A stretch of DNA of 64,000 nucleotides, from assembly GCF_017348835.2 (NCBI RefSeq), contig NZ_CP071375.1, one strand, 5' to 3'. Below the pieces are notes generated by a model. The model saw only the letters and a list, made by a program, of their open reading frames with translations, did no database searches and was not told the DNA's origin. This stretch comes from Escherichia coli. Lineage in GTDB: Bacteria; Pseudomonadota; Gammaproteobacteria; Enterobacterales; Enterobacteriaceae. Numbering within the stretch: the stretch's first letter is position 1; every line of letters starts with the position of its first letter. Position numbers and translations under genes: made by a program. This document shows positions 46,323-57,341 of this stretch, piece after piece.

Positions 46323-47231
46323 TTAAAAATACCCCTGACGTTTTTTCAGCTCCATAGACCCCGCCTGGTCGCGGTCAATCACGCGGCCCTGACGTTCACT
46401 GGTGGTGGAAACCAGCATCTCTTCGATGATTTCCGGCAGTGTTTGTGCATTTGACTCCACCGCACCGGTCAGCGGCCAGCAGCCCAGCGTACGGAAACGC
46501 ACCATCCGTTTTTTAATCACTTCGCCCGGTTGCAGGTCGATACGGTTGTCATCAATCATCATCAACATACCGTCGCGTTCCAGAACCGGACGTTCCGCAG
46601 CGAGATACAGCGGCACAATGTCGATATTTTCCAGCCAGATGTATTGCCAGATATCCTGCTCGGTCCAGTTAGAGAGCGGGAAGACGCGGATGCTTTCGCC
46701 TTTGTTAATTTGCCCGTTGTAGTTGTGCCACAGCTCCGGGCGCTGATTTTTCGGATCCCAGCGATGGAAGCGGTCACGGAAAGAGTAGATTCGCTCTTTA
46801 GCGCGGGATTTCTCTTCGTCACGGCGCGCACCACCGAAGGCGGCATCAAAACCGTATTTGTTCAGCGCCTGTTTCAGGCCTTCAGTTTTCATAATATCGG
46901 TATGTTTCGCGCTGCCGTGCACGAATGGATTAATCCCCATCGCCACGCCTTCCGGGTTTTTATGCACCAGCAGCTCGCAGCCGTAGGCTTTCGCCGTACG
47001 ATCGCGGAACTCATACATCTCGCGGAATTTCCAGCCGGTATCGACATGCAGCAACGGGAAAGGCAGCGTACCTGGATAAAACGCCTTGCGCGCCAGATGC
47101 AGCATGACGCTGGAATCTTTACCGATAGAGTAGAGCATCACCGGATTTGAGAATTCTGCCGCCACCTCGCGAATAATGTGGATACTTTCCGCCTCCAGTT
47201 GCTGCAGGTGAGTAAGTCGTTTTTGATCCAT
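46323..47231 (-). CDS. cysD: sulfate adenylyltransferase subunit 2
   Basis: 302-aa PAPS-reductase-fold ORF, first gene of cysDNC. Confidence 0.93.
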
Positions 47232-47482
47232 AACCGTTCCTTTGCAATACCGCTATTTTCTTGCCATCAGATGTTTCGACTATAGGGAGCGTAAGAGAAC
47301 GAATGAAATTACCAATTAGAATGAGTAGTTCCTTAACGGAATAACGATTTGGCAAAGCTAATATCAAAAAGTGCTTAAGGCACCGGATTTCGGGCGTTTA
47401 GGAAGATTTGAAATTGTTTTAGCGCAGCGGCAGTTTCATACTATGGCGGTAAAAAAATTTGCATGGTATTTAAGGACTCACT

Positions 47483-48520
47483 ATGTTTTCCGCATTGCGC
47501 CACCGTACCGCTGCCCTGGCGCTCGGCGTATGCTTTATTCTCCCCGTACACGCCTCGTCACCTAAACCTGGCGATTTTGCTAATACTCAGGCACGACATA
47601 TTGCTACTTTCTTTCCGGGACGCATGACCGGAACTCCTGCAGAAATGTTATCTGCCGATTATATTCGCCAACAGTTTCAGCAAATGGGTTATCGCAGTGA
47701 TATTCGGACATTTAATAGTCGGTATATTTATACCGCCCGCGATAATCGTAAGAGCTGGCATAACGTGACAGGAAGTACGGTGATTGCCGCTCATGAAGGC
47801 AAAGCGCCGCAGCAGATCATCATTATGGCGCATCTGGATACTTACGCCCCGCTGAGCGATGCTGACGCCGATGCCAATCTCGGCGGGCTGACGTTACAAG
47901 GAATGGATGATAACGCCGCAGGTTTAGGTGTCATGCTGGAATTGGCAGAACGCCTGAAAAATACGCCTACCGAGTATGGTATTCGATTTGTGGCGACCAG
48001 CGGCGAAGAGGAAGGGAAATTAGGCGCTGAGAATTTACTCAAGCGGATGAGTGACACCGAAAAGAAAAATACGCTGCTGGTGATTAATCTCGATAACTTA
48101 ATTGTTGGCGATAAATTGTATTTCAACAGCGGTGTAAAAACCCCTGAAGCAGTAAGGAAATTAACGCGCGACAGGGCGCTGGCAATTGCGCGCAGTCATG
48201 GAATTGCCGCAACGACCAATCCGGGTTTGAATAAAAATTATCCGAAAGGCACTGGGTGTTGTAATGACGCAGAAATATTCGACAAAGCGGGCATTGCTGT
48301 ACTTTCGGTGGAAGCGACTAACTGGAATCTTGGGAATAAGGATGGTTATCAGCAACGCGCAAAAACAGCCGCATTCCCTGCGGGAAATAGCTGGCATGAT
48401 GTAAGGCTTGATAATCAACAGCATATTGATAAGGCACTTCCTGGAAGAATAGAACGTCGCTGCCGTGATGTTATGCGGATAATGCTACCACTGGTGAAGG
48501 AGCTGGCGAAGGCGTCTTGA
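47483..48520 (+). CDS. iap: alkaline phosphatase isozyme conversion aminopeptidase
   Basis: 345-aa ORF with a signal peptide and M28-like peptidase core, adjacent to the CRISPR array. Confidence 0.88.
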   Translation: MFSALRHRTAALALGVCFILPVHASSPKPGDFANTQARHIATFFPGRMTGTPAEMLSADYIRQQFQQMGYRSDIRTFNSRYIYTARDNRKSWHNVTGSTVIAAHEGKAPQQIIIMAHLDTYAPLSDADADANLGGLTLQGMDDNAAGLGVMLELAERLKNTPTEYGIRFVATSGEEEGKLGAENLLKRMSDTEKKNTLLVINLDNLIVGDKLYFNSGVKTPEAVRKLTRDRALAIARSHGIAATTNPGLNKNYPKGTGCCNDAEIFDKAGIAVLSVEATNWNLGNKDGYQQRAKTAAFPAGNSWHDVRLDNQQHIDKALPGRIERRCRDVMRIMLPLVKELAKAS

Positions 48521-48540
48521 TGGGTTTGAAAATGGGAGCT

Positions 48541-48814
48541 GGGAGTTCTACCGCAGGGGCGGGGAATTCTCAGTGATATCCATCATCGCATCCAGTGCGC
48601 CCGGTTTATCCCCGCTGGCGCGGGGAACACTGCAGGTTTTTAGGGATAGTCACTGCAATACGCGGTTTATCCCCGCTGGCGCGGGGAACACGCAAGCCGC
48701 CCATTTGACGGTCACGCCAGTTACCGGTTTATCCCCGCTGGCGCGGGGAACACCCGGGATAGCCGATAACGATGGCGGCTCTGGGCGGTTTATCCCCGCT
48801 GGCGCGGGGAACAC
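48541..48814 (-). CRISPR. short type I-E CRISPR array: 4 intact 29-bp repeats plus one degenerate terminal repeat, 4 spacers
   Basis: CGGTTTATCCCCGCTGGCGCGGGGAACAC occurs at 48602-48630, 48663-48691, 48725-48753 and 48786-48814, with spacers of 32, 33 and 32 bp. A degenerate copy (18/29) lies at 48541-48569, leaving a 32-bp spacer at 48570-48601. Minus-strand repeat is GTGTTCCCCGCGCCAGCGGGGATAAACCG. Confidence 0.92.
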
Positions 48815-48910
48815 ACTAAGCATACATATCTGTTTTTAAACAAATTTATTCCACATCAACAATCTACCAACTAAATTCAAACATTTCCTTATTTTTAAAG
48901 AACACATAAC
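48815..48910 (-). promoter_or_regulatory. AT-rich CRISPR leader
   Basis: About 96 bp of AT-rich sequence between the last intact repeat and the cas2 remnant, the normal leader position for an E. coli I-E array. Confidence 0.55.
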
Positions 48911-49237
<327 letters not shown>

Positions 49238-49241
<4 letters not shown>

Positions 49242-50800
49242 TCAGCAGCCTCCTGCTTTTTCTCCCTGGCGGCTTTAGCACTTTGCTTCTCCGCCGATGT
49301 TGTAAAATATTTCTTGCGCGCGGTCATGACGCGTTCCAAATCAACGGGCTCATAAGGATTGGTGAATACACGCTCGTCAAAATCCTGACGTGCGAATAAC
49401 CAAATTTCCTTTTGCCATTTGCCGAGTAATTCATCCGCATCCTGACCTTCTTCAATTTGGCGCACTAACCTCAGGAAGCGATGCTGAGTTTTGTTCCAGA
49501 AGTCGATATCCACAAAACTGAAATCACCCCTTGCACCTTTTGGATCGGAGAACCATGCTTCTTTCAATGCACTCCGTAACAGACTCAGAATCCGTGAAGC
49601 CGTTTGCGCAGCCAGCCGCAGCTTCGGTATCTGGCCTTCTTTTTTATTGAGCAATAGAGGGAAATGGTGTTCGTACCAACAGCGAACCTTCATATCTTCG
49701 AAATCATAACCAAATCCCCACAAGCCTATTTTTGTCTGCTTTAGATTGCTGGCATTGAAAAGCTTCACTACCTGTGCGGGGAGTTCAGTATTGTTTTTTG
49801 ATTTACCTTCCTCTATGAGGCCTAACCAGTCGCGCCAGATTAAACCACCTGGTTGTGGTTTAACTGAGTAAAACTCTCCTCCCTCTTTAAGCGGCATACG
49901 GTAAGGTGTTAGAGGATGCCTCCACATGACGTATTGCACCCCATTGTTTTTAAGTGCCATCAAGCTCAATAGAGCGCCGCTCTGACTACCGCAAATATCG
50001 CAGTTGCCAATTGAGGTTGTCTTAAAATCAATACGAATACGCCGAGGCATTCCCCAGTAGGCCTGAAGTTTATTGACTTGTTCATCGGTTATCACAGCAC
50101 CATCCAGTTCACTGGTACGCGTCGGTGCAAGCCAGGGAAAGACCAGGTCATCAAAGGTTTTTGGTAAAGGTAAATCGGCTTCATCCTGTGGCATTACGTT
50201 AAGCCACAGCTTGCGCCACAAAGGGGGTTGTGGATTGCCCTGATACTCCAGCAATTCTATAAGTGTGGTCAGCGGCCCCCCGCCACGTAACCCCGGATAG
50301 TAACCGCGTCCACCTTTGGGAGCATTCAGCTGGATTGAAAAAAGTGCTAAAGGCACACAATGCAGGCATATATGCTGAATTGTATCTCGCTTAATAAAAT
50401 GGTCTTTATTTCGTTCTTTTGTTTGTTTTCCTGGTATGTCAGGAAGAAGCGAAGCAATAGAACTAACCTTAACTCTTAATTCTTCGAAATCCTGCATAAA
50501 TGAAGGTGAATCTGGCCCGAACTGGAAAGCATGTTCTAATAACAGCAATGCTTCCCGTAGCTTTTCGGCTTCCAGTCCGTCTTCCCAGATATCATCCCAA
50601 CGACGATGATCTTTTGGCGCGAAGCTGGTTTGTAGTAACCCCAGCAAAAACTGCCAGGCCGCCCCCTGGAGATCTGCCCGCGGCGCAGCGATATCGACAA
50701 CATTTTCATCCGCCAGATCGACTGGCGCCAGTTTGCCTGTCGTTCCGTCTTTAAAACGAACGGGCAACCACGGGGTTGTCAGAAGTGAAAACGAGTTCAT
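49238..50800 (-). CDS. casA: Cascade large subunit Cse1/CasA (variant distinct from the K-12 allele)
   Basis: 520 aa from MNSFSLLTTPWLPVRFKDGTTGKLAPVDL, a Cse1-type N-terminus; sits between cas3 and the cse2 start with the usual ATGA overlap. The start could instead be the upstream Met at 50860. Confidence 0.7.
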
Positions 50801-53538
50801 ACGCATCCTCTCGTAAAAAAGACCATCCAGGTCGGTTATCCATCCTTTTCGGTGTATCAACTATTCAGAGAGTCTCTGTCGCAGGCATCTCAATCAACCT
50901 TGCCAATCAATCCCTCCCTGGCCGAATACCCGCAACTTTCGTCATCAGTGACTAAAATCACGTTTGCCATCTCCGGATCTTGCCGTTGTTCAACACACCA
51001 CTGCCTGAACGCTTCCCCTTCCAGTAAAGAAAATTCATCCCGATGTTTTTTCCACCAGCTTCGACGCACTCTGGCAACGCTCATTTCCCATGCGTGAGCA
51101 CCGCTGGCATAAGGCTTCACCACACCGTCAATACAGGTAGCCAGCCACAGGGAAACAGACTCTTCAGCCAGACGTGTCGACAGCTTTTCCGGGAGGTAAT
51201 CGTTGATATTGGCGGCATAGCCGGGCCTGAAGTTCAGCATAAACTTTTTAGCCATTGCGCGATCGCAGTAATATTTGCCCACTTGCTCCTGCTCGCTGCG
51301 GGCAAATCCTTCCGGCATTACCACGTCCTCACCGTAGACGGATTCAATAAGAAGCCGGGCTGCGTGTGGCATCTGAATAGCGCCTTGCTCACGCAATACT
51401 CGCTGCGTCAGCCAGATTCGCCCATGATCGGGGTAGACATATGCGCTGTTACGCATCGCACTGCCAAACCATTCGTCACCCGGAGAGTCGTCCCAGACGG
51501 GGGCCAGAATCAGCAATTCAGGAGGGGAACGCTCGTCTTTTCCATCACGCTTTAACTGACCATTAATATCGCGAATATGCCGTTGTAATCGCCCCGCTCG
51601 CTGGATCAGCAAATCAATGGGGGCCAGGTCGGAGATCATTTCGTCCAGGTCAATATCCACACTTTGCTCAATTACTTGTGTACAAACAATGACTTGAGAT
51701 GATCTTTTTAAACTACAATTTTTACCAAAGCGTGCCAGCGTTTCCGTTTCAATTCGCTGGCGATCGCTAAAAGCAAAGCGGCTATGAAAAAGTGAAAGGC
51801 TGGAAGCAGGAATGACGCCGCGGGCAAGTAACTGACGATAAACCTTAATAGCGTCATCGACAGAATTCCGGATCCAGGCGATGCATTTCCCCTGACTTAC
51901 CGCTGATTCGATACGCGCAATACATTCTTGTTCGCTATGAAGCCAACCCACGCTCACGCTACGCTCAACGTCTTTGCGCGTCGCTACCCGGTGCGAATGC
52001 ACATCGGATTTCGTGACATGCGTCAGCCAGGGGTAATCATCCTTTTCCAGGAACGGAGCTTCTTGCTGGCCCTCTGTGCCACGCGCAAAGGCGGCGACAA
52101 GTTTGTCGCGCTGCTGTTGAGATAACGTAGCAGAAAGCAAAATGACGCTGTTTCCGCCACGCACCTGTCGCTCAATCAACCCTTCAAGAATGTACGACAT
52201 GTAAGCGTCACAGGCGTGGATCTCATCAGCCAGCAGGATTTTGTTACTCAACCCCAGAAGCCGCAGATTATTATGTTTAAACGGCATCACTGCCATCATC
52301 GCCTGATCCAGCGTGCCGACGCCAATTTCAGCCAGTAAAGCCTTCTTGTTACTGTCGGCAAACCAGGCTGCACATCCTTGACTGAACGCTTGTTCATCCG
52401 GTTCTTCTGACCCGACTAAATCACCGGACCAGAGTGATTCATTAAAGCGTTCCATTAATGTACGGGCGCTGTGTGCCAGCACCAGGCTGGGGCGGGATTC
52501 TGGCGAAAAGAAAGCAAGCCAGGTTTTGACCAGCCGATCGTACATGGCATTGGCCGTTGCCATTGTTGGCAGGCCAAAAAACAAACCCTGTGCTTTCCTC
52601 GCAGCCATCAACCTGTGCGCCAGGATAAGCGCCGCTTCTGTTTTACCTGCGCCAGTCACGTCTTCCAGAATAAATAACTTTGGCCCTGGCTGGCTGATAT
52701 CCAGATCCAGCACCTTTTGCTGTAATGGTGTCGGGTGCTCAATAAAAGGAAACAGCGTATTAATTCCGGTGAAAGGTGCGGTTTCTGCTTTTGGAGGAAA
52801 GACGGTTAAGGCGTTTTGAGCCTGAACTAAAGTTTTCTGCCAGTAATCTTTAATATCCATTGGGTGTGCGACGCGTGGAAAAAATCGCGTTGACGAACCC
52901 GTCCAGTCTGCGAGTACGACTGTTGCAGAGATATACCAGGAAAGTTGTTTTAAAAGTTCAACGCCCTCGTCATCATCCCAGAATGTGGGAATCTCTATGA
53001 GCGGAAACAGTGCCTTGATTTCAAGGAGAAAATCTCGCGCGGCAGCTTTGTCTTCAGGCAGAAAATTATCCAGCTCATCAATACGGTCAGGTGGTCGACC
53101 ATGATGCCCGGTAGTTATGGACATCCACATCTCTATTACACGTGTAAGTTTACGAGAAGAGAGTGAAGATGAAGGAAGCAACTCCTCACATTCACTTAAA
53201 TAATAATTCCACAGCCAGTAACCCAGCGTTGAATGAGAGATCTTTTCGTAATTCTTTCTGGAACCTTCCGGAATCTTGAGTTCAGGGGCCAGGTAAAGTT
53301 GCTGAAAAGAGCGGGCAAATTTTCCAATATCGTGCCAGCACAACAACCAGGCGAAAAATTGAGCCGCCTGTTCCTTGTCAGAAATCCCTAATTGACGAAA
53401 ATAATCAGCCAGCCCGAAGCAATTTCTTTTAACCATTAAATAGCCCATCGCGGCCACATCCAGCGAATGCCAGCAAAGAAGGTGTGAACCGCCCCGGAAA
53501 TCCTGGAGACTAAACTCCCTGAGAAAGAGGTAAACAGG

Positions 53539-53865
53539 ATGACTAAAAATACTCGTTTTTCCCCCGAAGTCCGTCAGCGGGCGATTCGTATGGTTCTGGA
53601 AAGTCAGGATGAATATGACTCACAGTGGGCGGCAATTTGTTCCATTGCCCCAAAGATTGGCTGTACGCCGGAGACTCTGCGTGTCTGGGTTCGCCAGCAT
53701 GAGCGGGATACCGGGAGTGGTGATGGTGGACTCACCACCGCTGAACGTCAGCGTCTGAAAGAGCTGGAACGTGAAAATCGTGAACTGCGCCGCAGTAACG
53801 ATATCCTTCGCCAGGCTTCCGCTTATTTTGCGAAGGCGGAGTTCGACCGCCTCTGGAAAAAATAA
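53539..53865 (+). CDS. IS3-family transposase OrfA (HTH / leucine zipper)
   Basis: 108-aa [25 protein letters not shown]... that I recognise as IS629/IS1203-type OrfA. Confidence 0.85.
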
Positions 53866-54752
53866 TGCCACTGCTGGATAAGCTGCGTGAGCAGTACGGG
53901 GTCGGACCGGTATGCAGCGAACTGCATATTGCCCCGTCAACGTATTACCATTGTCAGCAACAGCGACATCATCCGGATAAACGCAGTGCCCGTGCGCAGC
54001 ACGATGACTGGCTGAAGAAAGAGATACAGCGCGTATACGATGAAAATCACCAGGTATACGGTGTGCGTAAAGTCTGGCGTCAGTTGTTACGGGAAGGTAT
54101 CAGAGTGGCCAGATGCACTGTGGCACGTCTCATGGCAGTTATGGGACTTGCCGGTGTTCTCCGGGGTAAAAAGGTCCGCACTACCGTCAGCCGGAAAGCC
54201 GTTGCCGCATGCGACCGCGTAAACCGTCAGTTCGTGGCAGAACGTCCAGACCAGTTGTGGGTGGCTGATTTTACCTGGGTAAGCACATGGCAGGGCTTCG
54301 TTTATGTGGCGTTCATCATTGATGTGTTCGCCGGATACATCGTGGGATGGCAGGTCTCATCATCCATGGAAACAACATTCGTGCTGGATGCACTGGAGCA
54401 GGCGTTGTGGGCCCGTCGGCCGTCCGGCACAATCCATCACAGTGATAAAGGTTCTCAGTATGTATCGCTGGCCTACACGCAGCGGCTTAAGGAAGCCGGA
54501 TTACTGGCATCAACAGGGAGTACTGGCGACTCGTATGACAACGCGATGGCTGAGAGCATCAATGGTCTTTACAAAGCGGAGGTAATACACCGTAAGAGCT
54601 GGAAAAACCGGACAGAAGTGGAACTGGCCACACTAACGTGGGTGGACTGGTATAACAATCGACGATTGCTGGAAAGGCTGGGCCATATTCCTCCGGCAGA
54701 AGCAGAAAAAGCTTATTATGCTTCCATCGGAAATAATGATCTGGCAGCCTGA
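53865..54752 (+). CDS. IS3-family transposase OrfB (DDE integrase core)
   Basis: 295-aa ORF with an rve-type catalytic core (...HHSDKGSQY...YDNAMAESINGLYKAE...); its ATG overlaps the orfA stop (TAATG). Confidence 0.85.
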   Translation: MPLLDKLREQYGVGPVCSELHIAPSTYYHCQQQRHHPDKRSARAQHDDWLKKEIQRVYDENHQVYGVRKVWRQLLREGIRVARCTVARLMAVMGLAGVLRGKKVRTTVSRKAVAACDRVNRQFVAERPDQLWVADFTWVSTWQGFVYVAFIIDVFAGYIVGWQVSSSMETTFVLDALEQALWARRPSGTIHHSDKGSQYVSLAYTQRLKEAGLLASTGSTGDSYDNAMAESINGLYKAEVIHRKSWKNRTEVELATLTWVDWYNNRRLLERLGHIPPAEAEKAYYASIGNNDLAA

Positions 54753-55067
54753 GTTCACAGATAAAACACTCTCCAGGAAACCCGGGGCGGTTCAGTGATA
54801 GTCGTCACCCCCTTCTTTCTCGTCGCGTCGGGTTTTTCCCCAGAAATCAAAGAAAGTCACAATATTTTTATCCTTCAGTAAACTTAAAGGATATTTACGC
54901 ATATTTTAAAAATTATCTGTGATATATATCAGCCAATAAAACATTTATATTGTGAATAAATTTATGATTTTCATTTGAAATTCATAATAATAAATAGAGA
55001 CAATATATTCACATAAAAAATATAAATTTAAAAAAGGGTGCAGGAGACCAAACCATCACAATTCAAT

Positions 55068-55089
55068 ACGCGGGGTTTTACCCCCGCGT
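55068..55089 (-). terminator. hairpin terminator downstream of the hok-like gene
   Basis: acgcggggttttacccccgcgt stem-loop 6 nt after the hok stop, followed on the minus strand by a T-rich tract. Confidence 0.5.
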
Positions 55090-55094
55090 GGTGG

Positions 55095-55247
55095 CTACTT
55101 CTTCGATTCGTAAGCGAGAACAGCCTTAAACTCCATACCACGTTCCCTGATACTCAACTCACACAACGAGTCGCCTACCATCAGCGTGAATCCCAGTACT
55201 GTACAACACAGTACGATGATTGCCACAAGGGCATATTTTGTCAGCAT
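55095..55247 (-). CDS. Hok/Gef-family small membrane toxin
   Basis: 50-aa [53 protein letters not shown] with an N-terminal TM helix and the conserved SLCE...AYES C-terminal pattern; not in the supplied ORF track because it is below the size cutoff. Confidence 0.75.
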
Positions 55248-55308
55248 GTCTGTGTAAGTTCACAGAGATATTGCAATTGCCTCCGGATAAGTAAGGGGAG
55301 ATTGCACT

Positions 55309-56330
55309 ATGCAAATGCAGCATCTGATGGTTGGCTATCCTAAGTACTACCAAACGGCCGATTATGCGTTGAGGCTTTCAGTGATGGCTGATATAGCAAC
55401 AATGAGAATGAAGGCTCTGCACTTCTGGGATAAACACGGTATTTCTGCAGCTTCTGAAGCCTTTGGCGTGTCCTGCCGCACGCTTTACTGGTGGCGTCAG
55501 TTACTGAACAAGGAAGGACCTGAGGGGCTAATCCCGCACAGTAAGGCACCTCTGGTGCGACGAAAAAAACACTGGCATCCCGATGTGCTGAAAGAGATTC
55601 GACGCCTCAGGACAGAGCTGCCGAACCTCGGTAAAGAGCAGATTTTTGTTCGCCTGAAGCCCTGGTGCGAACAGCGCTATCTGGCCTGTCCGAGTGTTTC
55701 CACCATCGGCAGAATGATCGCTGCCGCACATGATAAAATGCGGATGATACCTGTGCGTCTGGGATCGCGGGGGAAGGCACTGCTTGTCAAAAAGCGGTCT
55801 GCCAAACCCCGCAGGCCAAAGCACTACCGCCCGGTAAAGACAGGTGAGCTCATTGGGATGGACGCCATTGAGCTCAGAATGGGCGAACTGCGTCGCTATG
55901 TCATCACCATGATCGACGAATGCAGCAATTACGCGCTGGCTGTGCCGTCACTCAACAGTGATATCGTCAATCACTTCTTCAGCCGCGCAGCCCGGTTGTT
56001 CCCGGTCGGTATCAGCCAGATAATCACAGATAACGGAAAAGAGTTCCTGGGAAACTTCGACAAAACGCTGCAGGAAGCCGCTATCAAACACCTCTGGACC
56101 TATCCCTACACGCCAAAAATGAACGCTATCTGTGAACGTTTTAACCGGACGTTAAGAGAGCAGTTTATTGAATTTAATGAGATTTTACTCTTTGAAGATC
56201 TGGCGCTATTTAACCAGAAGCTGGCGGAATATCTGGTGCTGTATAACAGCAAAAGACCCCACAAGGCGCTCGCACTAATGACGCCCGTGGAATATATTTT
56301 AAAAGAGAATAAAAATTGCAATATGTGGTG
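55309..56330 (+). CDS. DDE (rve/integrase-core) transposase, IS481-family-like; element ends not resolved
   Basis: N-terminal HTH (ISAASEAFGVSCRTLYWW) followed by an integrase core (ITDNGKEF...YTPKMNAICERFNRTLREQ...YNSKRPHKAL). The listed ORF runs on to 56739 into cysH antisense, which I take as read-through; the true 3' end is estimated near 56300-56330. Confidence 0.6.
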
Positions 56331-56606
56331 GACCCATACAATGTCTTGCCTCCCTGCAAAGAAGAGACTAACATTCGAATTGCTTAGGTTCGAACGCTGG
56401 CCTCAGGTTGATAGAAATATCGCCTGGGGCTTTTGTCCATCTGGAACCTCGCGAATGCTTAACGCCAGACAGCCTCAAGCACCCGACGCCATTCTATACC
56501 TGATAATTCTTCCAGCGGCGTTCACGTTTAAAATCAGGAATGCTGCTCGCAAAATAAAAACGCCCCCATCATTTCTGACAGAGGCGTTTAATTTATCCGG
56601 CAATAT

Positions 56607-57341
56607 TTACCCTTCGTGTAACCCACATTCCCTTTTTAAGCCAAAGAAACGCGTTTCTTCTTCCGCCATGCCAGGTTCCCATTTACGGGTTGTATGGGTA
56701 TCACCGACCGATAAATATCCTTCGTCCCATAATGGGTGATATTTCAGGCCATGCTTTTGCAGATACTGATATATCGTTCGGTTATCCCAATCGATAATCG
56801 GTAGCACTTTAAATACGCCACGCTGAATTGTCAGCACCGGTAAATTGGCGCGGCTGCCGGATTGTTCGCGGCGCAGGCCAGCAAACCACGTTTGCGCGTT
56901 AAGTTCTTTCAGCGCCCGGTTCATCGGTTCGACTTTGTTGATGTCATTGTACTTTTCAATGCCTTCAACGCCCTGCTCCCACAGTTTTCCGTAGCGTGCT
57001 TCCTGCCAGGCTGCGCTTTCGGTAGCACGGTACACTTTCAGGTTGAGCTTGAGTTTGTCCGTTAACTCGTCAATAAAGCGGTAGGTTTCCGGGAACAAGT
57101 AACCGGTATCGGTGAGGATCACTGGAATATCCGGGCGAATCTGATTCACCAGATGCAGGCTCACCGCCGCCTGAATGCCGAAGCTGGAAGAAAGCACATA
57201 TTCACCGGGCAGATTATCCAGCGCCCAGGCTACGCGGCCTTCAGCGTCCAGTTTTTCCAGTTGGGCGTTAGTTTCCGCCAGCGCCAGAATGCGATCTACC
57301 TTCGGCAGTTCGTTCAGGGCGTTTAGATCGAGTTTGGACAT
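56607..57341 (-). CDS. cysH: phosphoadenosine phosphosulfate reductase
   Basis: 244 aa from [22 protein letters not shown] with C-terminal ECGLH. The listed ORF starts 51 codons upstream. Confidence 0.93.

Follow-up and report, generated by a model that had tools for sequence, protein, structure and literature searches.

The window (the whole analysed stretch of 64,000 nucleotides of Escherichia coli DNA, contig NZ_CP071375.1) harbors a short type I-E CRISPR array located beside the iap gene. On the left, cysD and cysN precede iap (47483-48520; NF007568, E-value 1.7e-212), and from there the gene order is iap, array, leader, cas2 remnant, casB stub, casA, cas3, an insertion sequence (IS) and then cysH. 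The array contains four 29-nt repeats, all of which are identical and read CGGTTTATCCCCGCTGGCGCGGGGAACAC on the plus strand. Transcribed from the minus strand, they are found at 48602-48630, 48663-48691, 48725-48753 and, closest to the leader, 48786-48814, and their transcribed sense, GTGTTCCCCGCGCCAGCGGGGATAAACCG, is the 'type A' repeat of the non-K12 I-E variant. The repeats start 61, 62 and 61 nt apart, with unique spacers between them; repeats of ~29 nt with a palindromic core, a regular period of ~61 nt and unique spacers are all features of a type I-E array. When up to three mismatches were allowed, the repeat was found four times in the window, as compared with 0.00 occurrences expected from 100 shuffles. 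Thus, the array is not a product of chance.

The array is transcribed on the minus strand, with both the leader and the cas2 remnant lying to its right. The AT-rich leader (48815-48910, minus strand) stands between the first repeat and a region matching the Cas2e model (TIGR01873), and it is identical to the stretch that separates the intact cas2 from the first repeat in E. coli TUM13936. At the opposite end, facing iap, the array is closed by a degenerate terminal repeat (48541-48569, minus strand), which is identical to the consensus at about 19 of 29 positions and adjoins the stop codon of iap; an equivalent of this repeat is present in TUM13936. The four spacers, all of them on the minus strand and given here in the transcribed sense, are S4, the oldest one (48570-48601; 32 nt; GGCGCACTGGATGCGATGATGGATATCACTGA), S3 (48631-48662; 32 nt; CGTATTGCAGTGACTATCCCTAAAAACCTGCA), S2 (48692-48724; 33 nt; GTAACTGGCGTGACCGTCAAATGGGCGGCTTGC) and S1, the newest one (48754-48785; 32 nt; CCCAGAGCCGCCATCGTTATCGGCTATCCCGG). 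An earlier, sequence-only reading of this DNA had given the same four spacers, and all of its sequences and positions proved to be exact, lying between four identical 29-nt repeats. Its statement that the spacer at 48754-48785 is leader-proximal holds as well, since the leader and then cas2 are found on the right, the leader is that of TUM13936, the degenerate repeat is on the iap side, and the protospacer of S3 (see below) has an AAG PAM, which is compatible with minus-strand transcription only.

A simple sigma-70 scan of the leader, which is uninformative on transcription, found no promoter-like site. The Rfam search at gathering thresholds (positions 47000-50000) yielded no CRISPR-DR family, and the array was missed by Tandem Repeats Finder, its 61-nt units being too unlike each other; neither outcome has a bearing on whether the array is real. 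In the RefSeq records (PGAP annotation) of E. coli PE164 and F2_81, which carry the same array, no CRISPR feature is annotated at this place, and PGAP calls a 57-aa 'hypothetical protein' (WP_404853007.1; window 48650-48823, minus strand) across the repeats and spacers. The latter is a spurious ORF and, as such, an annotation error.

At the variant position, the base of the repeat is A, not T, and the plus-strand repeat ends with ...GGGGAACAC. The K-12 repeat, GAGTTCCCC..., differs from the repeat of the window at one position. The CasA protein encoded to the right of the array scores 88 bits on the K-12-type model (cutoff, 576) vs. 554 bits on the general Cse1 model. Based on the repeat base and the CasA model scores, the locus is assigned to the iap-adjacent type I-E array of E. 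coli (CRISPR1 or CRISPR2.1) in its non-K12 variant, with the type-A repeat, leader-A and cas-EO genes, according to the CRISPR-A / leader-A / cas-EO nomenclature of Diez-Villasenor et al. 2013 (PMC3737337). The non-K12 I-E variant accepts CWT (= AWG) motifs (PMC3737337). At the leader-proximal spacer end, such a PAM is found for S3 (AAG); for S2, the triplet is GTG in array orientation and becomes AAG only if the spacer is reversed.

Remains of the cas operon

On the minus strand, the array is accompanied by the leader, the cas2e remnant, the casB stub, casA and cas3, in that order. Out of the full type I-E gene set (cas3, cse1, cse2, cas7, cas5, cas6e, cas1 and cas2), casA alone is intact. 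This gene (cse1; 49238-50800, minus strand; TIGR02547, E-value 3.4e-166) is an apparently complete copy of the non-K12 variant. The cas2e remnant (48911-49135, minus strand) lacks its first ~22-23 codons, which correspond to strand beta-1 and a part of helix alpha-1, as judged from the alignment to the intact locus, and the Cas2e model (TIGR01873; Pfam PF09707) covers only residues 19-85 of the cas2 ORF. The 5' stub of casB (cse2; 49136-49241, minus strand) comprises ~35 codons (105 nt) and is fused to cas2 out of frame.

Alignment to the intact locus places the deletion junction at about position 49136 of the window, where casB is retained up to ...GACGGTTA and cas2 continues from CTGGAAGTG..., fusing casB codon ~35 to cas2 codon ~23. 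The junction sequence, GACGGTTACTGGAAGTG, has a 2-nt TA microhomology, and the casB frame enters cas2 out of frame and then stops. The deletion took away cas7, cas5, cas6e and cas1 in full, together with the remainder of casB and the initial ~22 codons of cas2; judging by the lengths of the lost genes, it spans an estimated ~4 kb. The tblastn search with Cas1e across the whole 64-kb window revealed no Cas1 homologue (best E-value, 2.7). The description of the locus as one without adaptation machinery, put forward in the sequence-only reading, is thus right in substance, with cas1 absent from both the locus and the window, but it understates the loss, as cas6e, cas7, cas5 and most of casB are gone too. 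What remains of the cas genes is a truncated cas2, the casB stub, the intact casA and a cas3 split by an IS.

The IS3-family element responsible for this split (53485-54794, plus strand; 1310 bp) lies inside cas3, is flanked by a 3-bp target-site duplication (GTG), and severs the cas3 body (50890-53484, minus strand) from its first ~36 codons and promoter, the displaced 5' fragment of cas3 being found at 54795-54902 (minus strand). While the IS3 family was established with sequence analysis tools, the element is probably IS629/IS1203-like, judging by its length of 1310 bp and its terminal sequence. The IS splits cas3 after about codon 36 in the window and in PE164. In F2_81, the IS is absent and cas3 has its full 2700 nt, the locus being otherwise identical, which indicates that the insertion is recent. 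Two further genes are found between cas3 and cysH (window ~55000-56700): one encodes a hok/gef toxin, and the other, IS481-like and labelled 'integrase core domain', is annotated as intact in F2_81 but is a pseudogene in PE164.

As judged from this gene content, crRNA processing, interference and adaptation would be impossible from the locus of the window. With Cas6e and Cascade lost, neither crRNA maturation nor interference is expected to take place, and, because of the ~4-kb cas deletion and the IS-split cas3, the spacers would be inert. They had been called fossils of past encounters in the sequence-only reading, a term that the deletion of cas1, cas6e, cas7 and cas5 supports.

With the cas-EO variant of E. 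coli CRISPR1/CRISPR2.1, the array of the window shares its place in the chromosome, a 29-nt repeat with A at the variant position, the leader seen in intact loci such as TUM13936, spacers of 32-33 nt, the AAG PAM of S3 and the terminal spacer S4. It differs in having just four spacers and in the state of its cas genes: most of casB and all of cas7, cas5, cas6e and cas1 are gone, cas2 is truncated, and cas3 is split by the IS.

Independent deletions with other breakpoints are found within the same operon in H3 (casA to cas2), EC596 (casA to leader) and VTB96935v (cas6e/cas5 region). Erosion of the type I-E operon is recurrent in E. coli, and the window resembles the eroded or orphan arrays of these strains in its partial cas deletion. 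The casB-to-cas2 breakpoint itself, however, was seen in PE164 and F2_81 only, among the inspected records (a part of the 19 high-coverage ones): these two were the sole records identical across the junction, whereas H3, EC596, VTB96935v and OkiPb01679 differ.

Origin of the spacers

All four spacers were BLASTed against 50,697 phage genomes, yielding matches with an E-value of 6 only, and a full-text search of the literature for the spacer sequences returned no paper. No self-target was detected: in the window, the best off-array match has at least 10 mismatches, and in the complete genomes of PE164 and F2_81 the spacers occur in one place each, the array itself. The target of all four spacers had been described as unknown in the sequence-only reading. 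This still applies to S1 and S4, but not to S3, which matches a P2 capsid gene (32/32, with AAG), nor to S2, which matches a gpA terminase gene (31/33). The use in strain typing, proposed there for the spacers as a group, suits S1 and S2 (PE164 and F2_81 only) and not S4 (78% of genomes), while S3 occurs in four arrays.

Spacer S4 was found in 4,241 of 5,426 complete E. coli genomes (78%), including those of K-12 MG1655 and O157:H7, in one copy each and always on the chromosome. In the three places inspected, namely the window, TUM13936 and plasmid pIOMTU792, it occupies the terminal position beside iap. From this distribution, S4 is regarded as the ancestral anchor spacer of E. coli, and, being present in 78% of the complete genomes, it carries no typing information. 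No protospacer of S4 was found in phages, plasmids or IMG/VR. Among the 50,697 phage genomes, a match to a fecal phage contig (E-value, 6) was rejected as chance. In the plasmid search, S4 was the sole spacer with matches, four records in total, three of which are chromosome-sized entries filed as plasmids. None of these was accepted as a target, since in pIOMTU792 the match was checked and is an array, and the other records are chromosome-sized. Plasmid pIOMTU792 (NZ_LC542972.1, 242939-250966) is a conjugative IncHI2A plasmid carrying cas7e-cas5e-cas6e-cas1e-cas2e, an array and iap ~2 kb from blaCTX-M-15; the resistance plasmid seems to have captured this CRISPR-Cas block from a chromosome.

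Spacer S3 is present in eleven genomes, in four of them within arrays (PE164, F2_81, TUM13936 and OZ197100) and in the other seven as a capsid-gene match. In these seven E. coli genomes, it matches, at 32/32, a prophage gene annotated as 'phage major capsid protein, P2 family' (E-value, 1e-7 against 28 Gb). The matched prophage of 40EC has genes for portal, terminase, GPO scaffold, capsid, gpM, ogr/Delta-like and replication endonuclease proteins, and its capsid gene product belongs to the Pfam family Phage_cap_P2 (E-value, 3.7e-85). In 40EC, the protospacer directly follows a canonical AAG PAM (...ggtAAG, then cgtattgc...). One IMG/VR contig (32.9 kb) also matches S3 at 32/32 and likewise has AAG, so that AAG was found at both of the two sites inspected. 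Based on these matches, S3 is traced to a divergent P2-family prophage, specifically to its gene for the major capsid protein. None of the 50,697 sequenced phage genomes has a capsid gene close to this one (identity of at most ~70-80%, confined to parts of its length), and it is because of this lack of a close capsid relative among the sequenced phages that the direct phage search missed the source of S3. The target prophage (a 24 kb region in 40EC) accordingly represents a P2-family lineage that is still uncharacterised and has been seen only in prophage form or as a viral contig. None of the eleven genomes contains both the S3 spacer and its protospacer, but these counts are too small to speak on immunity.

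Among the complete E. coli genomes, S1 was found in PE164 and F2_81 only. Its source was detected neither in plasmids, nor in IMG/VR (exact search and three wobble-degenerate codon phases), nor among the GTDB species representatives (exact search), and a search of the JGI metagenomes with N at every sixth position of S1 gave nothing. The matches of S1 to Aeromonas, Caulobacter and Pseudomonas phages among the 50,697 phage genomes (E-value, 6) were rejected as chance.

Spacer S2 is also confined to PE164 and F2_81 among the complete E. coli genomes, in which no protospacer was found. The first lead to its source was a weak 22/24 match (E-value, 6) to Enterobacter phage Arya and Klebsiella phage KA2-1, within their gene for the large terminase. 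Upon ungapped extension, S2 and these phages agree at 27 of 33 positions; of the six mismatches, four occupy the third position of a codon, and the S2 peptide, ASRPFDGHASY, corresponds to ATRPFDGHASY in Arya and KA2-1. A wobble-degenerate scan of the JGI metagenomes revealed a 31/33 match to contig RCUO01009298.1, in which the two mismatches fall on third codon positions and are synonymous, leaving the peptide unchanged (11/11); the per-site chance of a match of at least 31/33 is ~7e-17. On this contig, which originates from a compost enrichment culture from Goettingen (PMC7228900), a gene for a Nu1-type small terminase precedes one for a gpA-type large terminase (GpA_ATPase, 3.5e-74; GpA_nuclease, 5.5e-17). 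It shares ~70% nucleotide identity with a number of ~41-kb phages, i.e., KA2-1, HeidiAbel_Bas97, Salmonella PT1, ECOO78, ECO1230-10, ep3 and Arya. HeidiAbel_Bas97 carries an integrase, an excisionase and a CI-like repressor, which indicates that the phage group of the S2 source has temperate gene content; on account of this relative, a virulent phage, which would not fit the idea of temperate phages as the only targets of E. coli spacers, was rejected as the source. No DNA related to RCUO01009298.1 was found in the 5,426 E. coli genomes. Judging by these matches, S2 derives from a relative of the Jilinvirus-like coliphages, a temperate-type phage, and more precisely from its gpA-type large-terminase gene. 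Exact and wobble-degenerate scans of IMG/VR for S2 gave nothing, and a peptide-level scan of IMG/VR with RPFDGHASY returned Arya-type contigs only. A GTDB peptide-pattern match in an Elusimicrobia MAG, which has a stop codon inside, was rejected as chance.

The orientation of S2 can be read from its surroundings in RCUO01009298.1, i.e., from a 31/33 relative and not from the true source. In array orientation, the triplet upstream of the S2 site is GTG, not AWG, in both RCUO01009298.1 and Arya. On the opposite strand, the site reads ...ggaAAG, then CAAGCC..., and the G of this PAM together with the following 32 nt makes up exactly the 33-nt spacer. The opposite-strand AAG and this fit suggest that S2 was probably integrated in reverse orientation, which would require a prespacer 1 nt longer than normal. 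Alternatively, S2 may be normally oriented, a 33-nt spacer that was acquired with 'slippage' beside a GTG PAM departing from the consensus, a reading to which we attach a smaller, though still considerable, probability. The GTG triplet does lie upstream in both the source contig and Arya, its G would, as is normal, become the final base of the repeat, and motif-less insertions are common in naive adaptation (17 of 59 in K12 and 8 of 45 in O157:H7; PMC3737337). However, normal orientation leaves to coincidence that an AAG on the opposite strand is placed so that G plus 32 nt equals the 33-nt spacer, the two A's before that G having a chance of ~1/16, and reversed spacers are on record, having been documented experimentally (PMC3737337).

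The reverse orientation of S2 would be part of a broader reading, in which S2 is a natural, chromosomally fixed reversed spacer that was acquired next to AAG from a Nu1/gpA temperate-type lineage never seen as an E. coli prophage; we consider the chances of this reading to be about even. Reversed ('flipped') spacers in E. coli I-E adaptation were reportedly described by Shmakov et al. in 2014. S2 would resemble them in having its AAG-adjacent end distal to the leader, but it would differ in being a natural chromosomal example, not a laboratory acquisition, and in exceeding the canonical length by 1 nt. The crRNA of S2 would face no consensus PAM in either of the two orientations; a GTG PAM is not known to permit interference. 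If S2 is indeed reversed, mis-oriented, non-protective acquisitions would persist in wild cas-EO arrays.

Proposed history of the locus

The region 47400-53600 of the window is 100% identical, over its full length, to that of E. coli PE164 (pig, Nanjing, China), and it shares 100% identity over 6,085 bases with E. coli F2_81 (pig rectal swab, Australia). PE164 and F2_81 have the same array and the same deletion, and zero spacers have been gained since their divergence, while the IS is present in PE164 only. The locus is very probably an ancestral type I-E array which obtained its spacers from temperate phages and was then frozen by the casB-cas2 deletion.

According to this model, the spacers would have been gained singly at the leader end by Cas1-Cas2, when the operon was intact. 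S4 would be inherited from the species ancestor, as the ancestral terminal spacer carried by most of the species. S3 would have been gained next, before the split from TUM13936-type arrays, from the capsid gene of a P2-family temperate phage with the canonical AAG PAM. Subsequently, S2 and then S1 may have been added in the PE164/F2_81 lineage with Cas1-Cas2 still intact. S2 would stem from the gpA large-terminase gene of a distant relative of the Jilinvirus-like coliphages, a temperate-type phage with Nu1/gpA packaging, and was probably integrated in reverse, whereas S1 would come from a source not yet sequenced. A single ~4 kb deletion from casB to cas2 would then have frozen the array and put an end to crRNA processing and interference, and the IS629-like insertion in cas3, limited to the PE164 branch, would be the latest event.

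A different possibility is that the array is still used, with Cascade, Cas6e and Cas1 provided in trans by another I-E operon of the genome or of a plasmid, so that both immunity and array growth persist. Suitable components do exist, as IncHI2A plasmid pIOMTU792 with cas7e through cas2e, an array and iap is found in E. coli, casA is intact in the window, and cas3 is intact in F2_81. Nevertheless, use in trans is very unlikely, given that the array is identical, with no additions, in isolates of two continents, no Cas1 is encoded in the 64-kb window, and E. coli normally has a single I-E operon, which is located at the iap locus and is H-NS-silenced even when intact. It is next to inconceivable that the matches of S2 and S3 are coincidental and the true sources lie elsewhere: although the curated phage collection gave only matches with an E-value of 6 for every spacer, this explanation is effectively refuted by the match statistics, the PAM and the codon-phase pattern, with S3 matching at 32/32 (E-value, 1e-7 against 28 Gb), always in the same capsid gene and with AAG at both inspected sites, and S2 matching at 31/33, with synonymous changes only and homologous terminase codons in several related phages. 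The frozen array with spacers of temperate-phage origin thus remains the preferred explanation.

According to the literature, E. coli spacers mostly target prophages, with capsid genes among the top targets, and seldom match sequenced phages (PMC10910852), while ~41% of E. coli spacer clusters are unmatched (Dion et al. 2024, PMC10910852). The array of the window agrees with this in that S3 is absent from phage genomes and matches perfectly a capsid gene of E. coli prophages, the nearest relatives of the S2 source are temperate in gene content, and two of the four spacers are unmatched. It differs in that the source of S2 was found in a compost-enrichment metagenome only, none of the 5,426 E. 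coli genomes having it as a prophage.

The feature is already known in kind, and its exact sequence is already in RefSeq. What is added here are the source assignments of S2 and S3, the likely reversal of S2, and the mis-annotation in RefSeq. As typing markers, S1 and S2 point to a pig-associated lineage found in both Australia and China; S4 is uninformative in this respect. These results agree with published descriptions of E. coli I-E arrays as stable, slow-changing records of temperate-phage encounters, and the importance of a textbook array beside a decayed operon is small beyond annotation.

A comparison of TUM13936 (1480-1660) with the window (48570-48662) revealed an additional spacer, TCAGCAACAATTATTTTCGTCGCATCGTCATA, between S3 and S4 in the former. 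Because of this extra spacer, an internal spacer loss is probable in the lineage of the window. TUM13936 and the window further differ in the degenerate terminal repeat and in the final 2 nt of S4.
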